This document shows positions 1 to 9,480 of a stretch of DNA of 41,270 nucleotides, piece after piece (the stretch's first letter is position 1; every line of letters begins with the position of its first letter). Position numbers and translations under genes: made by a program. The notes under the pieces are model-generated. The model searched no databases. It had not been told where the DNA came from and was given only the letters and a program-made list of their open reading frames with translations. Origin of the DNA: Anaerolineales bacterium (GTDB lineage: Bacteria; Chloroflexota; Anaerolineae; Anaerolineales; DRMV01); contig JALUXH010000199.1 in the NCBI GenBank assembly GCA_027019065.1, positions 1 through 41,270 on the forward strand, read 5' to 3'.

Positions 1-2
1 AG

Positions 3-152
3 TTTTGGTTAGACCCGGTGGTCACTTTAGCGGCAAACTACGGATACGGGCGGGCCGAATTGCGGCGCATTGAACGATTGTTACAAAGGCAAATCGCTTT
101 GCTTTGGGAGCGATGGGATGACTTCTGCGGTAGTCACGGTAGCATGGCCTAA
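3..152 (+). CDS. DUF4160-family protein, 5'-truncated by window edge (putative type II TA toxin component)
   Basis: My translation of frame 3 (not in ORF track): FWLDPVVTLAANYGYGRAELRRIERLLQRQIALLWERWDDF..., stop TAA 150-152. Resembles the DUF4160 C-terminus and overlaps a DUF2442 gene, its usual partner. Confidence 0.75.
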   Translation, partial: FWLDPVVTLAANYGYGRAELRRIERLLQRQIALLWERWDDFCGSHGSMA

Positions 153-435
153 GATCATGGCTGTGCGGGTAAGCGAAGATACGCTCAGCGTGGATTTAGA
201 GGATGGGCGGACGATTTCAGTACCCCTGAGTTGGTATCCGCGGCTGGTGTATGCAACAGAGGCGGAACGGCAACACTTTGAGATTGCAGGAGCAGGGTAC
301 GGCATCCACTGGCCAGACATAGATGAAGACATTGGCGTGGAAGGCTTGTTGTTAGGGAAACGTTCCACCGAAAGCCAAACCTCTTTGAAGCGCTGGCTGG
401 CAGAGCGGGAGAAGAAGCGAAAAGATAGCGCTTAA
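118..435 (+). CDS. DUF2442-family protein (putative antitoxin partner of DUF4160)
   Basis: LSVDLEDGRTISVPLSWYPRL...GIHWPDIDEDIGVEGLL is the typical DUF2442 signature. ATG at 118 chosen over TTG at 70. Confidence 0.85.
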   Translation: MTSAVVTVAWPKIMAVRVSEDTLSVDLEDGRTISVPLSWYPRLVYATEAERQHFEIAGAGYGIHWPDIDEDIGVEGLLLGKRSTESQTSLKRWLAEREKKRKDSA

Positions 436-554
436 ACCCGCGACAGCCCCTTCACCAAATACACCTCCCCCCGCGTGAAGCCCCGTTCCAGGTAATACTG
501 CCGGGTGCCCACGGCGGCAATCACGGCCATGCGGCGGAAGCCGGCGGCGCGGGC
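432..554 (-). repeat. Duplicated 3' end of elp3 (last 40 codons plus stop), direct repeat of 2832-2954
   Basis: 123 bp identical to 2832-2954 except at 435, 513, 525 and 552; offset exactly 2400 bp. Confidence 0.97.
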
Positions 555-597
555 AGTTGTGTAGCCACAGCACCCTGACACTGCAAGTAAAACGAAG

Positions 598-627
598 ACG
601 CCCTGCTGCCAAAGCAGGGCGTTTTTT
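598..627. terminator. Intrinsic terminator, probably bidirectional, downstream of the REase
   Basis: 10-bp stem ACGCCCTGCT/AGCAGGGCGT, 5-nt loop, T tract on +, A-rich run just upstream. Confidence 0.7.
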
Positions 628-632
628 GTGGC

Positions 633-1490
633 TCAGGCGGCCAAATCAAGCGGCAGGTCGCTGATATCGCGCAGGCGCTGCCCCGAAATCATGGTTTCAA
701 GCAGGCCCTGGGCTGTTTCATCGCCGACTGCCGCAACCGCCTGCTGAAGTTCGGGCAAAGCGACGTGATACACACCATCCAGGTCGCCCGTGCCCAACGC
801 AAGGGAAGCCAGCCTGCCCGGGTGCGGCTCGGCAGTAACCACCACAATGTGCGGTGTATGCCCTTTCCGGTTGCGGATGAGGTTCAGCCCTTCAGTGCGC
901 ACGTTTTGCGAACGGTCGCTGCGGATGGTCCATTTGCAGGAAATGCTGGCGTGCAAGAGCGGCACGGTGTTGTTCACCCGGCGCAACGGTGAAAGGCCGG
1001 CGATGGTGCGCCCTTCAACGAGCTTCTCTCCCCGATTGATCGCTTCGTCAGGAAGCGGCTCACGCGCCACAATGATGTCGGGGGCAATGAGGTAATCCCC
1101 CAATGCCGCCCGCAGCGCCGGATGCGCGTGCAGCGCCTCGGTCAGGTCGGCCAAATGGCGGTATTGGGCGAAATCCTGAATGTGTGCATTGAGGTAAAAA
1201 CGCCAGTCGCCGGGGCGAAGGTGTTGCAGCAAGCCAAAGGCTTCCTCAAGGTAACGGCGGGTAACGCCTTCAAAGGATTTGCCTACCTGCTGCGGCTTGC
1301 GCTCATTCCGCGAAAGGCCACAACCAGCGTTTGTAGCAATGCTTTCCCACATCAAGCGGGCAACCTCGCGGCTGGTTTTGTTGCTCTTATCGGCATTGTT
1401 GGGATAGCCCGCCGAGGAAAGCCAAACCACCTCATCGCAAAGCGCGCGATGATAACGCTGCCGCAAGTTTTGCCACACCGTGGGCGTCAT
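633..1490 (-). CDS. NgoMIV-family type II restriction endonuclease (predicted GCCGGC)
   Basis: PDII...LHASISCKWTIRSDRSQN...LNLIRNRKG..PHIVVVTAEP matches the NgoMIV PD...SxK catalytic and RSDR recognition motifs. Start overlaps the MTase stop (ATGA). Confidence 0.9.
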   Translation of the reverse strand: MTPTVWQNLRQRYHRALCDEVVWLSSAGYPNNADKSNKTSREVARLMWESIATNAGCGLSRNERKPQQVGKSFEGVTRRYLEEAFGLLQHLRPGDWRFYLNAHIQDFAQYRHLADLTEALHAHPALRAALGDYLIAPDIIVAREPLPDEAINRGEKLVEGRTIAGLSPLRRVNNTVPLLHASISCKWTIRSDRSQNVRTEGLNLIRNRKGHTPHIVVVTAEPHPGRLASLALGTGDLDGVYHVALPELQQAVAAVGDETAQGLLETMISGQRLRDISDLPLDLAA

Positions 1491-2824
1491 GACACATCTC
1501 CCTCTTTGAGAAAGCCGAGGACATACTCCGAGTGCATCCGCTTTTCAATAGCTGAGCCAATGCCGCCGCGCCGCGTGGGCATCATCCGGCGGTCGCGGTC
1601 CAACTGACGCTCGCCAATGCCCACACAGCGCAGCCCTACCTGCTCGCCAATGGCAGCCAGGCTTTGGGGCACGCGAGCAGGCACGCCGCGCATTGTGCTC
1701 TCGCCCACAACCAACACGGCAACACCTTCAGGCGCAAGCACCCGCCCCATTTCGCTCAATCCCCGGCGCATTTCAGAGAAATACCGGTGAAGCACTTTGC
1801 CCTTTCTGGCATCCACCGCGGCAACTTCAGCCACGGCCTGCATGGCTGCAGGCGGCAGGGCTTCCATTTCAAAGCCCTGCAACGCCTCGCCGCCGATGTA
1901 TTCCTTCCGCAAAGCGCCCAATGCCCGAATGCTGTAGCCCCACCAAATCAGCGAAAACTTATGCGCCCGCATGTAGTCAATGGCGTTGGCAGCATAGGGC
2001 GGCGACGTCACAATGAGGTGAACGCTGTTCGTGGCAAAAGGAAGGCGCTGGGCATCGGCTTCGCTCAACCAGGGGGAAACCGATGGGCGCGGCGGCATTT
2101 GAGCCAACAGGCGTAAAGCCCGCCGTGCTTTTGCACGGAAGGCTTCCACTGCCGAGCGGGGGGCTTTTGCTACTTTATGGGGGCGGGTGTGGGAAAGGTC
2201 GCGTGCCTGCGCCACGCTCCCCGATTTGGCAATGATGATGCTGGAAAACACCACCCGCAAAAAAGGCTGCATGGCAGGCGGGCTTTCCTCAATGGCCGCG
2301 CTCAAAGCAAGCAGTTCCTGCTGGGTTTGAGGCAAAAACCAGTAATCGGCAAAGGCACGGGTGGGGGCGTCCAGGCGGGTTTCCCGCAAAACGGCAAGGT
2401 CTTGGGGGTTTTCCAGCATTTGCCGGGCACGGGTGAGCACGGCGTGGAAAGCCGATTCAAACAATGCGGGGGCCGGCGGGTTGGCTTTGGCCGCCACTAA
2501 CCGCAGCGCCAAAGGGTCAATGTCGGTACCTAACGCCACACGCCCCAGGCGGTGGGCTTCCAAAATCGTAGTGCCGGAACCCATCATGGGGTCAAGCACA
2601 TGGTCGCCGGGCCCGGTGAGGTGGCGGATGAAAAGCCGCGGCAACGCCGGCGGGAATTTTGCAGGGAAAGGATGGAGCGCATGTAGCGGGTCTTCCCCCT
2701 TTTGGCCGTGGAAGTTCAGGTCGCCTTCCAGCAGCAAGCGCAGTTTGGCCGCTTGCGAGGGGGCGGCAACCACTTCGGGACGCAGTTGAGGTTGAGGCAA
2801 GGTGTATTCCAGCGGCAGTTGCAT
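1487..2824 (-). CDS. DNA amino-methyltransferase, alpha-type motif order, probably N4-cytosine
   Basis: HPFPAKFPP and VLDPMMGSGTT (SAM-binding) near the N-terminus, IVTSPPY (catalytic motif IV) in the C-terminal half; coupled to the REase. Confidence 0.88.
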   Translation of the reverse strand: MQLPLEYTLPQPQLRPEVVAAPSQAAKLRLLLEGDLNFHGQKGEDPLHALHPFPAKFPPALPRLFIRHLTGPGDHVLDPMMGSGTTILEAHRLGRVALGTDIDPLALRLVAAKANPPAPALFESAFHAVLTRARQMLENPQDLAVLRETRLDAPTRAFADYWFLPQTQQELLALSAAIEESPPAMQPFLRVVFSSIIIAKSGSVAQARDLSHTRPHKVAKAPRSAVEAFRAKARRALRLLAQMPPRPSVSPWLSEADAQRLPFATNSVHLIVTSPPYAANAIDYMRAHKFSLIWWGYSIRALGALRKEYIGGEALQGFEMEALPPAAMQAVAEVAAVDARKGKVLHRYFSEMRRGLSEMGRVLAPEGVAVLVVGESTMRGVPARVPQSLAAIGEQVGLRCVGIGERQLDRDRRMMPTRRGGIGSAIEKRMHSEYVLGFLKEGDVS

Positions 2825-2831
2825 AACCTCA

Positions 2832-4442
2832 TTATACCCGCGACAGCCCCTTCACCAAATACACCTCCCCCCGCGTGAAGCCCCGTTCCAGGTAATACTG
2901 CCGGGTGCCCACCGCGGCAATCACCGCCATGCGGCGGAAGCCGGCGGCGCGAGCGATGCGGTCGGCTTCTGCTAACAGTCGCGTGCCCAGGCCGATGTGC
3001 TGGGCTGCGCCTTCCTGGGCCGCGCCTACGGGCAGCGATTGGCCGTAAACATGCACTTCGCGGATGATGGCCGCCCCCGCGAGGTCGGCCATGCCCACAT
3101 CGGGCGCTTCGGGGCGGGGCAGCGAAAGCCGCAGGAAGCCCGCCAGGCGGTCGTCGGGGGTGACGAATTGCAAAAAGTGCTCCTCCGCGTGGGCGGCGGC
3201 GTAGGTGAAGTCTTCCAGCCGCAGCAGTTCGGGGCGCACGGGCTTGCCCCGCACCTCACGGCAGCGGATGCAACGGCAGCGGGTGCCGCGGCGCGCCATT
3301 TCGGCGAGCACATCCTGCCGCAAACTGGTGCGCTTGTTGCCCGCCACCACGTGCGTGGAGGGAATGTCGCGGATCACCCGGTTGATGCGGCAATAGGGCG
3401 GCACGGTGGCCTTCACGTCGGCCAGCAGGTCAACCAGTGCCTCGGTGGTGTAGGGGGTGTAGTTCCCGGCTTTCCAGATTTCGTAGAGTTCGGTGCCGGG
3501 CAGCAGTTGAGCCGGGTAAATTTTCAGTTCGTCGGGGCACAGGCCCTGCCACAGGCGGGCGAAATCGGTGCGGTCGCTCTCCGGCGTGGCACCCAGCAGG
3601 TTGGGCATCCAGTGCGCCACGATTTTGAAGCCCGCCGCCCGCAGCAGCGCCGCGGCGCGCAGGTTGTCTGCCGCTGTGTGGCCGCGCTTGTTGAGGGCTA
3701 AAATGCGGTCGTCCATGCTCTGGAAGCCCACCTGCACCTTGGTCACGCCCAGTTCGCGCAGGCGGCGCAGGGAAGCCGGCGAAACGTGGTCGGGGCGGGT
3801 TTCCACCACCAGCCCCACATTGCGGTGGCGGGCGGTCTCGTTGTGGCGCTGGGCGGCGGCCAGCGAAGGCGCGCGGCACTCGCCTTCCTGCTGCCACGCG
3901 GCAGGGCAGTCGTCGGCGTTGAGGGCGTCGTACAGGCGGCGGATGAACCACGTCTGGTAATCCTTCGGGTAAGCCGTCCACGTGCCGCCGAGCACCAGCA
4001 GCTCAATTTTGTCGGTGGGGTGGCCGACGGCTTCCAGCGCGGCCAGGCGGGCGCGCACCTGGGCGTAGGGGTCAAAGGCGTGCATCAGCGCCCGCTGCGC
4101 GCCGGGTTCGTCGGGCAGGTAACTTTTGGGCATCCGCACATCGTCGGGGCAGAAAATGCACTCGCCCGGGCAGGGGTAGGGCTTGGTGAGCACCGTGACC
4201 ACCGTGACGCCCGAAAGCGAGCGCACCGGCTTCAGGCGGATGCGCGCCAGCAGGTCATGGTCGGCTTCCCACGCGCCGCTTTCCACCAGGCGGCGGTAGG
4301 CCGCCACTAAGGCGCTCTTGCTCAACAGCCCGCGCGGCAGCGGGTGGTGCTTGATGGCCGTCATTACATCCAGGCCGTCGCGGATGGCTTCCAGCGCGGC
4401 CACGGCCTGGGCAAAGGTTTCGGGGGAAAGGTCAGAGGGCAT
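2832..4442 (-). CDS. elp3: Elp3-family tRNA U34 modification enzyme (radical SAM plus GNAT/KAT domain)
   Basis: KPVRSLSGV, CPGECIFCP, GGTW, ETRPD, ELKIYP, RINRVIRDIP, CRCIRCRE, IIREVHVYG, QHIGLG, AVGTRQYY are Elp3 hallmarks. Confidence 0.93.
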   Translation of the reverse strand: MPSDLSPETFAQAVAALEAIRDGLDVMTAIKHHPLPRGLLSKSALVAAYRRLVESGAWEADHDLLARIRLKPVRSLSGVTVVTVLTKPYPCPGECIFCPDDVRMPKSYLPDEPGAQRALMHAFDPYAQVRARLAALEAVGHPTDKIELLVLGGTWTAYPKDYQTWFIRRLYDALNADDCPAAWQQEGECRAPSLAAAQRHNETARHRNVGLVVETRPDHVSPASLRRLRELGVTKVQVGFQSMDDRILALNKRGHTAADNLRAAALLRAAGFKIVAHWMPNLLGATPESDRTDFARLWQGLCPDELKIYPAQLLPGTELYEIWKAGNYTPYTTEALVDLLADVKATVPPYCRINRVIRDIPSTHVVAGNKRTSLRQDVLAEMARRGTRCRCIRCREVRGKPVRPELLRLEDFTYAAAHAEEHFLQFVTPDDRLAGFLRLSLPRPEAPDVGMADLAGAAIIREVHVYGQSLPVGAAQEGAAQHIGLGTRLLAEADRIARAAGFRRMAVIAAVGTRQYYLERGFTRGEVYLVKGLSRV

Positions 4443-4533
4443 GGTGTGGCCTGGGGGGAGGGGCGCCCCGCCGGGGGGCTTGGGTGAAGTGTGCGCGCCT
4501 GGCGGCGCGAGCGAGGTTGCACCCCAATTCTAC

Positions 4534-4562
4534 TTGACTTTTGCCGCCTGTGCGCCTATAAC
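4534..4562 (+). promoter_or_regulatory. sigma70-type promoter for the nitroreductase-aroH-pheA operon
   Basis: TTGACT-17 bp-TATAAC upstream of the RBS GAAGGAG and ATG 4607. Confidence 0.6.
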
Positions 4563-4606
4563 AAGGGCATTCCTGCCCGCCTGGCAGGTTTTGGAAGGAG
4601 AAAGCC

Positions 4607-5089
4607 ATGACTGTCCATACCCCTGCCCCGCCGCGCGGCCTGAAGGCCATCCCCTGGCGGCTGCCGATATGGATTTACCGCCTGCACCTCGGCTTTTTGC
4701 TCAACGAGCGCTTCCTGCTGCTGGAGCACACCGGGCGCAAAAGCGGCAAGGTGCGCCGCGCGGTGCTGGAAATCATCGGCAAAGATGCCGAACCACGGGC
4801 CTATTATGTGGCTTCGGGGTTTGGCGAGCGGTCGCACTGGTTCCGCAACGTGATGCACCATCCGGAAGTCCGCATTCAGGTGGGGCGGCGGCGTTACCGG
4901 GCGTACGCGGAGCGGCTTCCGGAAAGCGAGGCGCTGGAACGCCTGCGCGCCTATGCCCAAGCGCACCCCACGGCCCTGCGTGAACTGGTCCGGCTGCTGC
5001 ACTACCCTTACGACGGCAGCGACGAAAGCCTGGAAGCCATTGGCCGCGCCTTGCCCGTGGTGCGCTTTCGGGTGCTGGAAGCCGCATAA
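4607..5089 (+). CDS. Deazaflavin (F420H2)-dependent nitroreductase/DDN family protein
   Basis: [15 protein letters not shown]...[24 protein letters not shown] motifs. Confidence 0.88.
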
Positions 5090-5105
5090 CCCCCAGGAGG
5101 TTGCC

Positions 5106-5558
5106 ATGCCCTTGATGTGCCGTGGTGTGCGGGGGGCCACCACCGTGCCCGAAAACACCCGTGAGGCCATCTTGCGGGAAACCCGCCGCCTGCTGGCGCT
5201 GATGATTCACCTCAACGGCATCCGCGCCGAAGATGTAGCCAGCGCCACCCTGACCACCACTCCCGACCTGAACGCCGAATTCCCCGCCCTGGCGGCCCGA
5301 CAGTTGGGATGGAAGCATGTGCCGTTGCTGTGCGGGCACGAGATGAACGTGCCGGGGCAGATGCCGCGCGTGGTGCGGGTGCTGGTGCACTGGAATACCA
5401 CCAAAGCCCAGGATGAAATCGTGCATGTCTATCTTGGCGAAGCCGCCAGACTGCGCCCCGACCAACTGCACCTGCAAACGGTGGACTGGGAGGCGCTGGA
5501 AGCCTGGATTGCCGGGCAACTGGCCGCTTTCCGGCGCGGCGAGGAGGAGCAGCCATGA
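5106..5558 (+). CDS. aroH: Chorismate mutase, AroH class
   Basis: [42 protein letters not shown]; AGGAGG RBS before ATG 5106. Confidence 0.92.
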
Positions 5559-6415
5559 CCACGGTAGCCTTTCAGGGCGAGCACGGCGCTTATTCCGAAG
5601 AAGCCATCCGGCAGCACTTTGGCGGCGAAGCCCAGACCCTGCCCTGCCGTTCTTTTGAAGAGATTTTTGCGGCGGTGGAAGGCGGGCGCGCCGATTTCGG
5701 CGTGCTGCCGGTAGAAAACGCGGTCGCCGGCTCTATCAACAAGGCCTACGACCTGCTGCTGGCCCACGATTTGCGGGTGAGCGGCGAAATCTACCTGCCG
5801 GTGCGGCACCATCTGCTTGCGCCCGCGGGCACGCGCCTGGAAGACATCCACACCGTGCGCTCGCACCCCCAGGCGCTGGCGCAGTGCGAAGATTACCTCG
5901 CCGCCCACGGCTGGCGCGCCGAGCCGTGGTATGATACCGCCGGCAGCGCAAAAGACCTCGCCGCCGCCCCGCAGCCCGGCGTCGCCGTGCTGGCCAGCCG
6001 CCTGGCGGCCGAAATCTACGGCTTGCAGGTGCTGGCCGCAGATGTGCAGGACCGGGCGTGGAACGTCACGCGCTTTTTCGTCATCGGCTATGGTGAGGCC
6101 GAGCCGCAGGCGCGCATGAAAACCTCGCTGGTGTTTGCTGTGCCGCACCGCCCCGGCGCACTGGTGGCCTGCCTGGACGAATTTGCCCGCCGCGGCCTCA
6201 ACCTGACCAAACTGGAAAGCCGCCCCCGCCGCAACCGCCCCTGGCATTACGTCTTCTACCTGGATTGCGAGGGGGCCTGGCAGGAGCCGCGTTGCGCCGA
6301 GGCGCTGGTCGGGCTGCTGGCCCGGGCGGCTTTCCTCAAGTTGCTGGGGTCTTACCCCGCGGCTGAAAACCCCCTCACCAGCGCCGCGGTTTCCCCAAAA
6401 GCAAAAATCCCCTGA
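5555..6415 (+). CDS. pheA: Prephenate dehydratase (PDT plus ACT domain)
   Basis: [47 protein letters not shown]; ATGA overlap with aroH. Confidence 0.94.
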
Positions 6416-9186: not shown

Positions 9187-9269
9187 GTTCTGAGAGTCGT
9201 CTGATTCCAACGCAACGTCAATCTCAATTAAGGTCTCATGTTACGCAGCTGAGTATCCACATATCTAAG

Positions 9270-9363
9270 CGCCCTCACCTTACCCCCGCTGCGCGCCCCC
9301 TCTCCTCTCCCAGTGGGAGAGGAGAGGGGGCCGAGCCGCCGCGAAGAGGGAGTGGTGAGGGCG
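9270..9363. repeat. Nested C/T-G/A palindromic intergenic repeat (CIR/RPE-like)
   Basis: 18-bp perfect IR 9295-9312 / 9314-9331 inside outer IR CGCCCTCACC / GGTGAGGGCG. Confidence 0.75.
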
Positions 9364-9480
9364 AAAAGGCCGAATGTTCAACGGTTTCATAGGGTGAAAT
9401 TGCTGCCTGTCAATCACTGCTGCGTAACGTGAGTTAAGGTGGCAGATTGGATATCGTGAACCCAAGTCCTGCGCTTTCTT

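Follow-up and report, generated by a model that had tools for sequence, protein, structure and literature searches.

A restriction-modification operon fused to the 3' end of elp3 and bracketed by a duplicated elp3 tail in an Anaerolineales bacterium

The window, that is, the whole 41,270-nt stretch of DNA analysed here, is the entire contig C199 of G000, a 277-contig MAG of an Anaerolineales bacterium with 3% contamination. Near its left end, an REase (restriction endonuclease) gene and an MTase (DNA methyltransferase) gene lie between elp3 and a detached copy of the elp3 3' end, which in turn adjoins a DUF2442 gene (Table 1). Elp3 scores 481 bits against the NCBIfam model (cut-off 350) and carries the Pfam domains Radical_SAM and Radical_SAM_C. 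The REase matches NgoMIV_restric (PF09015; E 3e-102, profile positions 1-274 of 275) and is like NgoMIV itself (PDB 1fiu; E 4e-73) over its full length, residues 8-284 of 285, the SCKWTIRSDR stretch included; recognition of GCCGGC is presumed from this homology. Its partner MTase, being of the N6/N4 amino-methyltransferase type, is counted as a difference from the NgoMIV system. The stop codon of the MTase gene overlaps the start codon of the REase gene (ATGA). The restriction-modification (RM) genes are 59-62% GC, against 66-70% for elp3. GCCGGC is mildly depleted in the window, with 48 sites where 63 are expected and fewer in 1 of 100 shuffles.

Table 1. Features at the left end of the window
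Feature	Position	Strand	Basis
Small ORF truncated at the contig end (3' part), preceding its partner, the DUF2442 gene	3..152	+	ORF list
DUF2442 gene	148..435	+	Pfam PF10387, E 6e-24
Orphan elp3 tail, last 40 codons plus stop (repeat copy 1)	432..554	-	Repeat search
GCCGGC, presumed REase recognition site	540..545	.	Specificity inferred from NgoMIV homology
Junction J1, switch from tail to spacer	546..555	.	Alignments, suggestive only
Spacer: remnant of the 3' flank of a periplasmic binding-protein gene plus two-way terminator hairpin	555..632	.	Alignment, terminator scan
Full-length Type II restriction endonuclease of the NgoMIV family, 285 aa	633..1490	-	Pfam PF09015
DNA methyltransferase, N6/N4 amino-methyltransferase type, 445 aa	1487..2824	-	Pfam PF01555 N6_N4_Mtase, E 1e-20
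Gap from elp3 stop to MTase start, 7 nt, with GAGG ribosome-binding motif (junction J2)	2825..2831	-	Sequence
elp3 (radical SAM + GNAT), 536 aa; last 123 nt (2832-2954) are repeat copy 2	2832..4442	-	TIGR01211

The direct repeat reported in the initial annotation was recovered by a repeat search of the window and by script comparison: 432-554 and 2832-2954, 123 nt each, are 97% identical and spaced by 2400 nt. As had been stated there, the repeat brackets the MTase, the REase and the terminator alone, the remaining ORFs overlapping both genes in other frames, and the unit is free of integrase and transposase genes according to the ORF list and a Pfam search of the contig (the overlapping ORFs lie outside the Pfam scan). 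No recombinase gene was found between or beside the repeats within the contig, which stops 431 nt to the left of copy 1. Nor were long inverted repeats found flanking the unit, those detected being short, imperfect and away from its ends. Judged from sequence features, the unit is a recombinase-free, translationally coupled Type II RM operon fused to the 3' end of elp3, and it is probably transcribed together with elp3.

Comparisons were made with 22 other genomes of the family, of which G002 and G004 are congeneric with G000. The small ORF, for which searches of Pfam and NCBIfam returned no matches, and the DUF2442 gene are also neighbours in G002 and G018 (81% nucleotide identity); in G002 this module is placed between orthologs of genes that are adjacent on contig C244 of G000. 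The DUF2442 stop codon TAA (433-435) overlaps the orphan elp3 stop codon on the opposite strand. No continuation of the left end was found among the contig ends of G000, none of which has a 21-31-mer in common with window positions 1-150.

The two repeat copies differ at 435/2835 (A/T), 513/2913 (G/C), 525/2925 (G/C) and 552/2952 (G/A). All four mismatches occupy the third codon position in the minus-strand reading (GTT/GTA, GCC/GCG, GCC/GCG and GCC/GCT), and both copies encode the same 40 residues and stop, in agreement with the earlier claim that the differences are synonymous. With the mismatch at 552 only 3 nt from the repeat end, the homology may end at 551, leaving 120 nt with three differences. 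Among the 360 possible single substitutions in the repeat codons 103 are synonymous; the probability that all four changes would be so is 0.0067 if every change fell in a neutral copy and about 0.04 if they were split between a neutral and a constrained copy. Outgroups assign two changes to each copy, with a probability of 0.08 that both of the orphan's would be synonymous. On its own, the all-synonymous pattern is statistically weak evidence.

These figures bear on a history in which the tail was duplicated in place and later diverged under upkeep by gene conversion, an empty site being then an excision product. Both the division of the changes by outgroup and the modest improbability (about 0.04-0.08) of the all-synonymous pattern would suit such a history, and direct repeats 2.4 kb apart are able to recombine. 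Furthermore, both copies share several letters unlike those of G002, including a TCG codon and an extra G that lengthen Elp3 by 3 residues relative to G002. However, no simple mechanism places 120 nt beyond a 2.3-kb operon. Together with the points against it given below, this makes duplication in place decidedly improbable.

One such point comes from the junctions. J2, comprising the elp3 stop, ribosome-binding site and MTase start, is present in G002 without any duplication, and thus only the far junction (551-555) is new. Homology to G002 ceases exactly at the REase stop. In G004, too, the REase is followed by the spacer and terminator, which lead there into the end of a binding-protein gene of convergent orientation; between the spacer and G004 contig C221 the identity is 91%, down to window position 563. 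The ortholog of this gene in G000 is on contig C10, with a 3' flank different from that in G004 and only weakly resembled by the spacer. The spacer next to the orphan thus appears to be a donor-type flank as in G004, which argues against duplication in place. The sequence GGCGCG (546-551) is common to the elp3 tail and to the 3' end of the REase-abutting binding-protein gene of G004; the match spans 6 nt, the genome being GC-rich, and positions 553-562 align imperfectly to G004. The terminator-like hairpin (598-622) has a T-run on the plus strand too according to the terminator scan, and could end the DUF2442 transcript as well.

The functional elp3 shows a history tied to that of the RM genes. 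The REase-MTase-elp3 block (633-4426) is 91-93% identical to its counterparts in G002 and G004, against 70-88% for other genes. In G002 the identity (93%) is even along the length, 23 of 25 consecutive 150-nt segments from 633 to 4382 standing at 90-98% and the other two at 78% and 87%; past the elp3 start it drops to 74%, and 13 other segments shared by G000 and G002 are 70-82% identical. In G004, elp3 is 91% identical, as is the REase with spacer, against 77% for the F420 gene adjoining elp3 and 71-88% for 15 other segments. The elp3 tree rejects the pair G000 and G005 (p-AU 6e-6), which gene A supports at 100/99, and genes A and B reject the elp3-tree grouping of G000, G002 and G004 (p 3.5e-5 and 0.0026), the groups for these AU tests having been picked after the identity tables had been inspected. 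Block identity and the conflict between the elp3 and neighbour trees together indicate that elp3 and the RM operon move together. The functional elp3 of G000 is thus supported as the allele that travels with the RM operon, and in this genus of Anaerolineales elp3 and operon appear to be inherited and exchanged as one 3.8-kb block in which elp3 would serve as a homology arm. The orphan, 97% identical to the functional tail, is about 75-83% identical to the tails of G005, G006 and G013; the recipient allele would therefore already have been of the block type, so that at least two rounds of exchange are needed. Pairs of MTase and REase genes were not found beside elp3 in G011, G018, G014, G015 and G021, where pairs (65-71% nucleotide identity) are on other contigs.

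The association was also surveyed across 62 Anaerolineae elp3 loci from species-representative genomes, a set not independent of the G-numbered genomes, which are drawn from species representatives as well. RM homologs lie downstream of elp3 in one of the 60 loci that retain the 3' end (L059). Pfam searches of the two longest ORFs in the first 2.5 kb downstream, made for the 50 loci whose flank is 2 kb or longer, turned up ordinary, lineage-specific genes; further RM genes were absent, as were genes for integrases and transposases. The survey of downstream cargo proposed in the initial annotation, run here in Anaerolineae, thus speaks against the elp3 3' end as a general RM landing site, and that idea was rejected. 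Duplications of a locus's own elp3 tail occur in two of the 60, neither with RM cargo; one is a match of 34 nt in a long-read assembly with frameshifts and the other is L113. A metagenome scan with a degenerate tail-peptide pattern, which may leave out records near the genome of the window, returned three loci, all distant (63-65% amino acid identity), with no strain-level relatives among them.

Further evidence comes from public sequencing runs, used as Logan k=31 contigs: X1 is the source sample, X2 belongs to a different study and X4 represents a diverged lineage. A 350-nt contig of X2 (word depth 9.6) covers 257-525 with no differences, skips 2400 nt and resumes at 2926, joining DUF2442 directly to elp3; the joint can be placed anywhere in 525-551. 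A k=31 graph cannot form this join from the two copies, the SNPs at 525 and 552 being separated by just 27 nt. The empty site anticipated in the initial annotation, elp3 abutting DUF2442, is thus present in X2 with a single-copy repeat, on one contig; none of the 22 other genomes of the family has an empty site with DUF2442. The tail at the empty site has the orphan's letters at 435, 513 and 525, so that the orphan would be the copy matching the resident allele, and the proposal that the copies represent two functional elp3 alleles gains support. In X4, a 670-nt contig covers 451-1077 at about 93% identity, and the orphan-spacer-REase junction is accordingly present in a diverged lineage as well and is no isolated artefact of assembly.

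These contigs also bear on whether the arrangement was produced by mis-phasing in assembly, an empty-site strain having been joined, through the 77-nt identical core of the repeat, to a cassette that is circular, in tandem or elsewhere. The setting is one in which this could happen: copy 1 is close to the contig end, the X1 Logan contig begins at the same first base as the MAG contig, the MAG is fragmented and slightly contaminated, and the empty-site form is present in X2. In X1, moreover, 435 and 513 are unphased in contigs across the core (records 1 and 2). However, G513 and G525 stand on the X2 contig that extends from DUF2442 across the core, in the phase of the MAG contig, and ordinary 150-nt reads bridge the 79 nt between 435 and 513. 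The orphan-type tail and spacer junction occurs in two runs, exactly in X1 and at about 93% in X4. A form in which C2913, C2925 and A2952 are linked to the elp3 body has to exist somewhere too, and the assembled path places the four junctions most simply. Mis-phasing is accordingly regarded as very unlikely.

The elp3 bodies in X2 differ from that of the window. Among the contigs listed on 3136-4062 the differences amount to 3.4-9%, most of them at third codon positions. Of the 21 variable places listed for 3075-3591, 16 show a non-window letter throughout the X2 depth; at the other five (including 3354, 3357 and 3372) the contigs with the window letter differ from the window at 3351 and 3363. 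The divergence of the tail (3/120) fits the allelic divergence of elp3 in X2, the empty-site contig being linked to the divergent elp3 contigs by similar depth only. X2 also holds RM pieces 100% identical to the window (595-2020 and 2190-2702), and no X2 contig covers J1 or J2. That the X2 elp3 body is a different allele speaks against duplication in place, as does the identity of the empty-site tail to the orphan at three of three informative sites, for which the chance under a random crossover is about 0.2. The empty site is more readily taken for the ancestral state than for a product of excision.

The same observations weigh on a Campbell-type integration, in which a 2.4-kb circle (tail, spacer, REase, MTase) from another chromosome entered by a single crossover in the empty-site tail, thereby duplicating it, the reverse reaction excising the circle. 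In E. coli, circles bearing a portion of a target yielded duplications of 109-950 bp on integrating by a single crossover, in the account given by the consulted part of PMC3240628, and a cycle of insertion, amplification and release is among the proposals of Furuta et al. in the part of PMC2853133 used here. The SNP pattern is compatible with a crossover in 526-551, although the crossover would then be confined to the last 26 of 120 nt. In X1, the Logan contig spanning 436-2865 begins and ends with the same 30 nt and thus forms a closed path, as a circle would; it is nevertheless neutral, since a k=31 graph yields the same closed path for the integrated form. Integration of a circle predicts a resident elp3 body, but the body in G000 is 3-9% off the elp3 contigs of the empty-site run and stands out from the 70-88% background in its 91-93% identity to G002 and G004. 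The tail-spacer junction of the circle would, in addition, require an earlier illegitimate event. Such an integration is therefore thought unlikely. Word depth in X1 is 8.3 for the cassette and 6 and 9.1 for the flanks, contig depth being a poor measure; with cassette depth equal to flank depth, the suggestion of the initial annotation that the unit could excise or amplify through the repeats was not borne out as to amplification.

Slightly better than even confidence is given to an origin by one homologous crossover in or upstream of elp3 and one illegitimate join, with the orphan as the resident allele. The donor would have had the order elp3, MTase, REase, terminator and end of the convergent binding-protein gene, and the recipient chromosome a DUF2442 gene abutting elp3. 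After the homologous crossover, an illegitimate join at GGCGCG, 120 nt short of the resident gene's end, would have completed a homology-facilitated illegitimate recombination (HFIR). The resident elp3 would thus have been replaced save for its last 120 nt, the tail staying as an orphan attached to DUF2442, and the result would look like an insertion with long target duplication. Since it is two working alleles that they separate, the differences between the repeats would be synonymous. The route may have been direct recombination of donor DNA or the later passing-on of such a product by homologous recombination. Should the age of J1 match what the 7% divergence of X4's strain suggests, a clean orphan would need repeated refreshing by recombination or gene conversion, which is assumed. 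The earlier proposal that the cassette brought an elp3 tail with it and recombined in thus holds as regards recombination; what arrived was apparently not a tail only but the whole of elp3 with MTase, REase and terminator, and apparently also a scrap of the donor's next gene in the spacer.

RM operons with long direct repeats of their target have reportedly been catalogued since 2000, and the locus offers a clear natural instance of an already known mode of RM operon movement. Like that long-target-duplication class it has R and M genes, no mobility gene and a repeat that spans the target stop codon and is single-copy at an empty site; the insert of about 2.28 kb is below the class limit of 20 kb, and the repeats of 120-123 nt exceed the 30 bp asked for. 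The likeness drawn in the initial annotation stands for these features but not for a copied target, the repeat being better read as a donor tail and a resident tail. Unlike the class, the locus has an elp3-MTase junction that a relative shows with no duplication at all, and a target gene whose allele is of foreign type. As described in the part of PMC2853133 consulted (Furuta, Abe & Kobayashi 2010), many of the repeats span the target stop codon and leave the gene intact, and double-strand breakage is put forward as one cause they may have in common; by a word search, 'illegitimate' does not occur in PMC2853133. The portions of the literature considered leave open how repeat-flanked RM operons enter.

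HFIR itself is said to go back to de Vries & Wackernagel (2002) and Prudhomme et al. (2002). The locus resembles it in that one end is anchored by homology (elp3) with foreign genes carried between, elp3 being of block type with donor-type sequence on the incoming side. The other end may, from genome comparison, have been joined without homology at a short GC-rich match. These likenesses are to HFIR as outlined in the sections of PMC3240628 and PMC5361080 drawn on; the predicted outcome in those of PMC3240628 is a deletion, whereas 120 nt of the target are retained here at either side. In those of PMC5361080, C-terminal displacement at Rhs and T6SS effector-immunity loci leaves orphan 3' ends, an incoming module with a common 5' part pushing the resident 3' part downstream, much as here; those loci hold arrays of differing toxins and immunity proteins, whereas the same 40 residues and RM cargo are found here. 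HFIR as a cause of long target duplication was not met in the passages of the literature treating both, which is not to claim its absence from print.

A role for the enzyme may be considered as well. GCCGGC at 540-545 directly adjoins the junction microhomology and is also present at 2940-2945; the chance of such proximity to the junction is estimated at a few percent, having been spotted post hoc. A simple join at a restriction cut was rejected, as the orphan retains GCCGGC and 6 nt beyond it. More speculatively, and with rather low confidence, the RM operon may have made a housekeeping gene its vehicle, forming a recombinase-free elp3-RM block whose joining is aided by restriction breaks. 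Such a block would cross species borders within the genus by homologous replacement of elp3. The displaced tail would give homology on both sides, allowing insertion or loss by plain homologous recombination, and the orphan would be renewed from a working allele at every transfer. Breaks at the presumed GCCGGC site in an unmethylated recipient would help the illegitimate join. If true, the vehicle reading would supply a concrete mechanism for the entire long-target-duplication class.

Three forms of the locus are found in vent-metagenome Anaerolineales: the donor type (G004 and G002), the empty recipient (X2) and the product (this contig and the X4 copy). They favour ordinary homologous recombination combined with a single illegitimate join over a dedicated insertion mechanism. 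A defence operon can carry a housekeeping allele across species lines. Should reads confirm it, the locus would be a test case for the spread of recombinase-free defence genes. It also warns against treating elp3 as a clean phylogenetic marker within this group.

A single long direct repeat is found within positions 1-6000 of the window by repeat search, at 432-554 and 2832-2954, each copy being 123 nt long, 97% identical to the other and 2400 nt away from it. The second copy is the tail of the functional elp3 gene and the first is an orphan elp3 tail; the two enclose a cassette of methyltransferase (MTase), restriction endonuclease (REase) and terminator. The four mismatches (435, 513, 525 and 552) all fall at codon position 3 on the minus strand in a script comparison, and translation of both copies gives the same 40 residues plus stop. 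Repeat search and codon comparison thus bear out the repeat, its spacing and its synonymous differences as first described in the initial annotation, and the gene content named there matches the ORF calls and the profile and structure hits. The elp3 stop lies 7 nt from the MTase start, ahead of which is a GAGG motif, and the MTase stop overlaps the REase start. As the window is a whole contig, the contig end is only 431 nt from the orphan copy; the source MAG consists of 277 contigs and is 96.5% complete and 3.0% contaminated.

Features of the elp3-restriction-modification (RM) locus, in window coordinates
Feature	Position	Strand	Evidence
DUF2442 gene	148-435	+	E 6e-24
Hairpin, 10 pairs, T-runs on both strands	598-622	both	terminator scan
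NgoMIV-family endonuclease (REase)	633-1490	-	Pfam E 3e-102; PDB 1fiu E 4e-73 over residues 8-284
N6/N4-type DNA methyltransferase (MTase)	1487-2824	-	profile assignment
Elp3	2832-4442	-	NCBIfam TIGR01211, 481 bits vs cut-off 350

Synonymous changes make up 103 of the 360 possible single substitutions in the 40 tail codons. By our own arithmetic, four synonymous changes have P = 0.0067 if all arose in a freely drifting copy and P ~0.04 if a drifting and a constrained copy both contributed. Polarised by alignment with the tails of eight relatives, the derived state at 552 belongs to the functional copy, as probably does that at 525, and those at 513 and 435 belong to the orphan; with two of the four changes derived in the orphan, only two test it (P 0.08). 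The change at 435 also makes the DUF2442 stop codon. Both tails have letters in common that are unlike those of the related genome G002, including a TCG codon and an extra G with which Elp3 is three residues longer in the source genome (G000). Overall, the synonymous pattern is suggestive of two functional alleles, short of decisive.

Elp3 is present in 37 of the 41 genomes searched, G000 counted, and among the 23 genomes of the family the same RM operon lies behind elp3 in G000 and G002 only, plus probably G004. The G002 locus is 93% identical to the window over 633-4426, and homology ends at both limits, the REase stop and a point just within the elp3 start; no orphan tail or nearby DUF2442 was found at it, and its neighbourhood differs from that of G000 on both sides. 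G002 Elp3 (L032:8590-8610; window 2832-2845) stops three codons sooner, at TAG. Compared with the window, one nucleotide is deleted immediately ahead of the MTase ribosome-binding site both in G002 and in the abundant G002-like strain of public run X3, where the deletion falls at 2837 and where homology stops at 633. For G004, identity is 91% both in elp3 (window 2931-4423) and in the REase with its spacer (563-1455); the elp3 contig breaks off within the tail, and the MTase was not found in this 82%-complete bin. Left of the G004 spacer there is no elp3 tail; a convergent periplasmic binding-protein gene ends there. The first 35 nt of the G004 REase gene (L043:1-130, contig G004:C221) are swapped for unrelated sequence reaching the contig end, with no in-frame start codon found at L043:1-130, and the G004 cassette may be decaying or interrupted by a repeated element. 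RM genes are absent after elp3 in G003, G005, G006, G007 and G008, of the genus, and in G013, and the elp3-downstream genes of these six are unlike one another.

G000 and G002 are uniformly similar over REase, MTase and elp3 (90-98% identity in 23 of 25 150-nt windows); identity falls to 74% beyond the elp3 start and is 70-82% in 13 other segments. Other G000-G004 segments are 71-88% identical, with the F420 gene adjoining elp3 at 77%. G005 is closest to G000 in two neighbouring genes (91% and 83%); in elp3 the closest are G002 and G004 (92%, vs 85% for G005). The elp3 tree rejects G000+G005 (p-AU 6e-6), gene A, a neighbouring gene, rejects G000+G002+G004 (p 3.5e-5) and gives G000+G005 100/99 support, and gene B, another neighbour, rejects G000+G002+G004 too (p 0.0026), the groupings having been picked once the identity tables had been seen. 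The tree conflict together with the even block identity indicates that elp3 moves with the RM operon as one unit. GC content is 59-62% in the RM genes, 66-70% in elp3 and 54% in the DUF2442 module. Between G002 and G004, gene B is 97.6% identical and elp3 96.2%, with gene A at only 80.2% (L056/L057 vs L050/L052), a mosaic that would reflect either rampant recombination in the genus or one mixed bin.

Public sequencing runs were compared as Logan k=31 contigs, without reads. Run X1, probably the source sample, holds exact contigs for 1-465 and 436-2865, the latter self-closing via the repeat core; the integrated form gives the same closed path in a k=31 graph, so this contig leaves phase unsettled. 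Run X2, from a different study, holds a 350-nt contig (word depth 9.6) that follows 257-525 without difference and resumes at 2926, skipping 2400 nt, with the joint anywhere within 525-551. Judged from its sequence, this one contig is the empty site sought in the initial annotation, DUF2442 abutting full elp3. SNPs 525 and 552 are only 27 nt apart, so neither repeat copy in the filled form could supply 31-mers with G525 and A552. At 435, 513 and 525 the empty-site tail agrees with the orphan, and the X2 phase across these positions is the same as in the MAG, which argues against mis-phasing of the MAG contig during assembly, an improbable explanation. The observation is real; its main weaknesses are contig-level phasing and dependence on single contigs from public runs.

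Elsewhere in X2, RM pieces 595-2020 and 2190-2702 are identical to the window, and contig coverage is absent from 526-594 and 2703-2925, which flank them. The X2 elp3 contigs listed on 3136-4062 differ from the window by 3.4-9%, and X2 elp3 differences lie mostly at third codon positions. Within 3075-3591, the whole X2 depth has a non-window letter at 16 of the 21 listed variable places, and for the remaining five every X2 contig with the window letter departs from the window sequence at both 3351 and 3363. Had a 2.4-kb circle entered an empty-site chromosome by one Campbell-type crossover, the same map would result and the elp3 body would still be resident-type; the X2 data argue otherwise, and such integration is unlikely. 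Run X4 holds a 670-nt contig matching 451-1077 at ~93% identity (45 differences, 1 gap) that spans orphan, spacer and REase, so a diverged lineage has the junction as well; an elp3 of the same allele family is present in X4 too, with a different sequence again downstream of it.

At 91% identity the spacer (563-632) matches the G004 REase flank, a likeness that by eye extends to ~555 and reaches the final codons of the G004 binding-protein gene. The G000 ortholog of that gene (75% aa) sits on contig C10 with a 3' flank just loosely similar, so the window spacer is a second, G004-like copy of the flank. GGCGCG occurs at 546-551 in the elp3 tail and GGCGCGG at the end of the G004 gene, and the orphan G552 agrees with G004. 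The true repeat may therefore end at 551 (432-551, three differences), with donor flank attached inside a 6-nt microhomology; a GCCGGC site at 540-545 directly adjoins this stretch. With the elp3-MTase junction already in G002 and REase-terminator-flank already in G004, only 551-555 is new. The orphan shares 97% identity with the incoming tail and only 75-83% with the G005, G006 and G013 tails, so the recipient elp3 was already block-type. Duplication of the tail in place followed by drift would also give two copies; it accounts neither for the donor-type flank nor for the empty-site tail and is rather improbable.

The simplest history, towards which we lean, is that donor DNA carrying elp3, MTase, REase, terminator and a gene-end scrap recombined with an empty-site chromosome through a single homologous crossover, located within elp3 or upstream of it, the second end being made by one illegitimate join within the resident elp3 tail, with the orphan as the resident allele. 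The far junction probably arose once and was later passed on by homologous recombination, with orphan and elp3 as arms. The initial proposal of donor and recipient alleles brought together by recombination is largely right, given the empty-site tail and the tree conflict, and was too narrow in having the donor bring just an elp3 tail and not, as now seems likely, the whole of elp3.

A survey of 62 elp3 loci from Anaerolineae and neighbours, 60 with the 3' end present, finds RM homologs behind elp3 at one of the 60 and a second copy of the gene's own tail at two, and Pfam searches of the two longest downstream ORFs at 50 loci return ordinary genes only. This survey of elp3-downstream cargo, suggested in the initial annotation, reveals no general RM landing site; the elp3 3' end as a general landing pad is rejected, the RM link being restricted to a few genomes of a single genus. 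A further orphan elp3 tail, without RM cargo, occurs in an Acidobacteriota MAG (L113:6582-7163), where the final 153 nt of elp3, together with the flank, recur 332 nt downstream at 94% identity, with at least five 23-nt tandem units arrayed between the copies. The small-ORF and DUF2442 pair (window 1-442) is 81% identical to a G002 copy (L044:5438-5879) whose insertion separates the orthologs of two neighbouring genes of G000 contig C244, and a further copy is present in G018; the pair behaves as a mobile two-gene module, possibly toxin-antitoxin-like. At window 9235-9436, a ~70-200 nt element has 80-99% matches at dozens of sites in G002, G013 and G004, far exceeding genome background, which suggests a dispersed repeat, e.g. 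MITE or REP-like; ARAGORN finds no tRNA there.

The proposed history fits homology-facilitated illegitimate recombination as outlined in portions of PMC3240628 and PMC5361080. The locus likewise agrees with 'insertion with long target duplication' as delimited in the relevant sections of Furuta et al. (PMC2853133), where long target repeats often span the stop codon, with the target gene kept intact, and double-strand breakage is suggested as a cause that such insertions might share. The elp3-RM locus adds a new, well-documented case to a known class, and the mechanism proposed for it is plausible.
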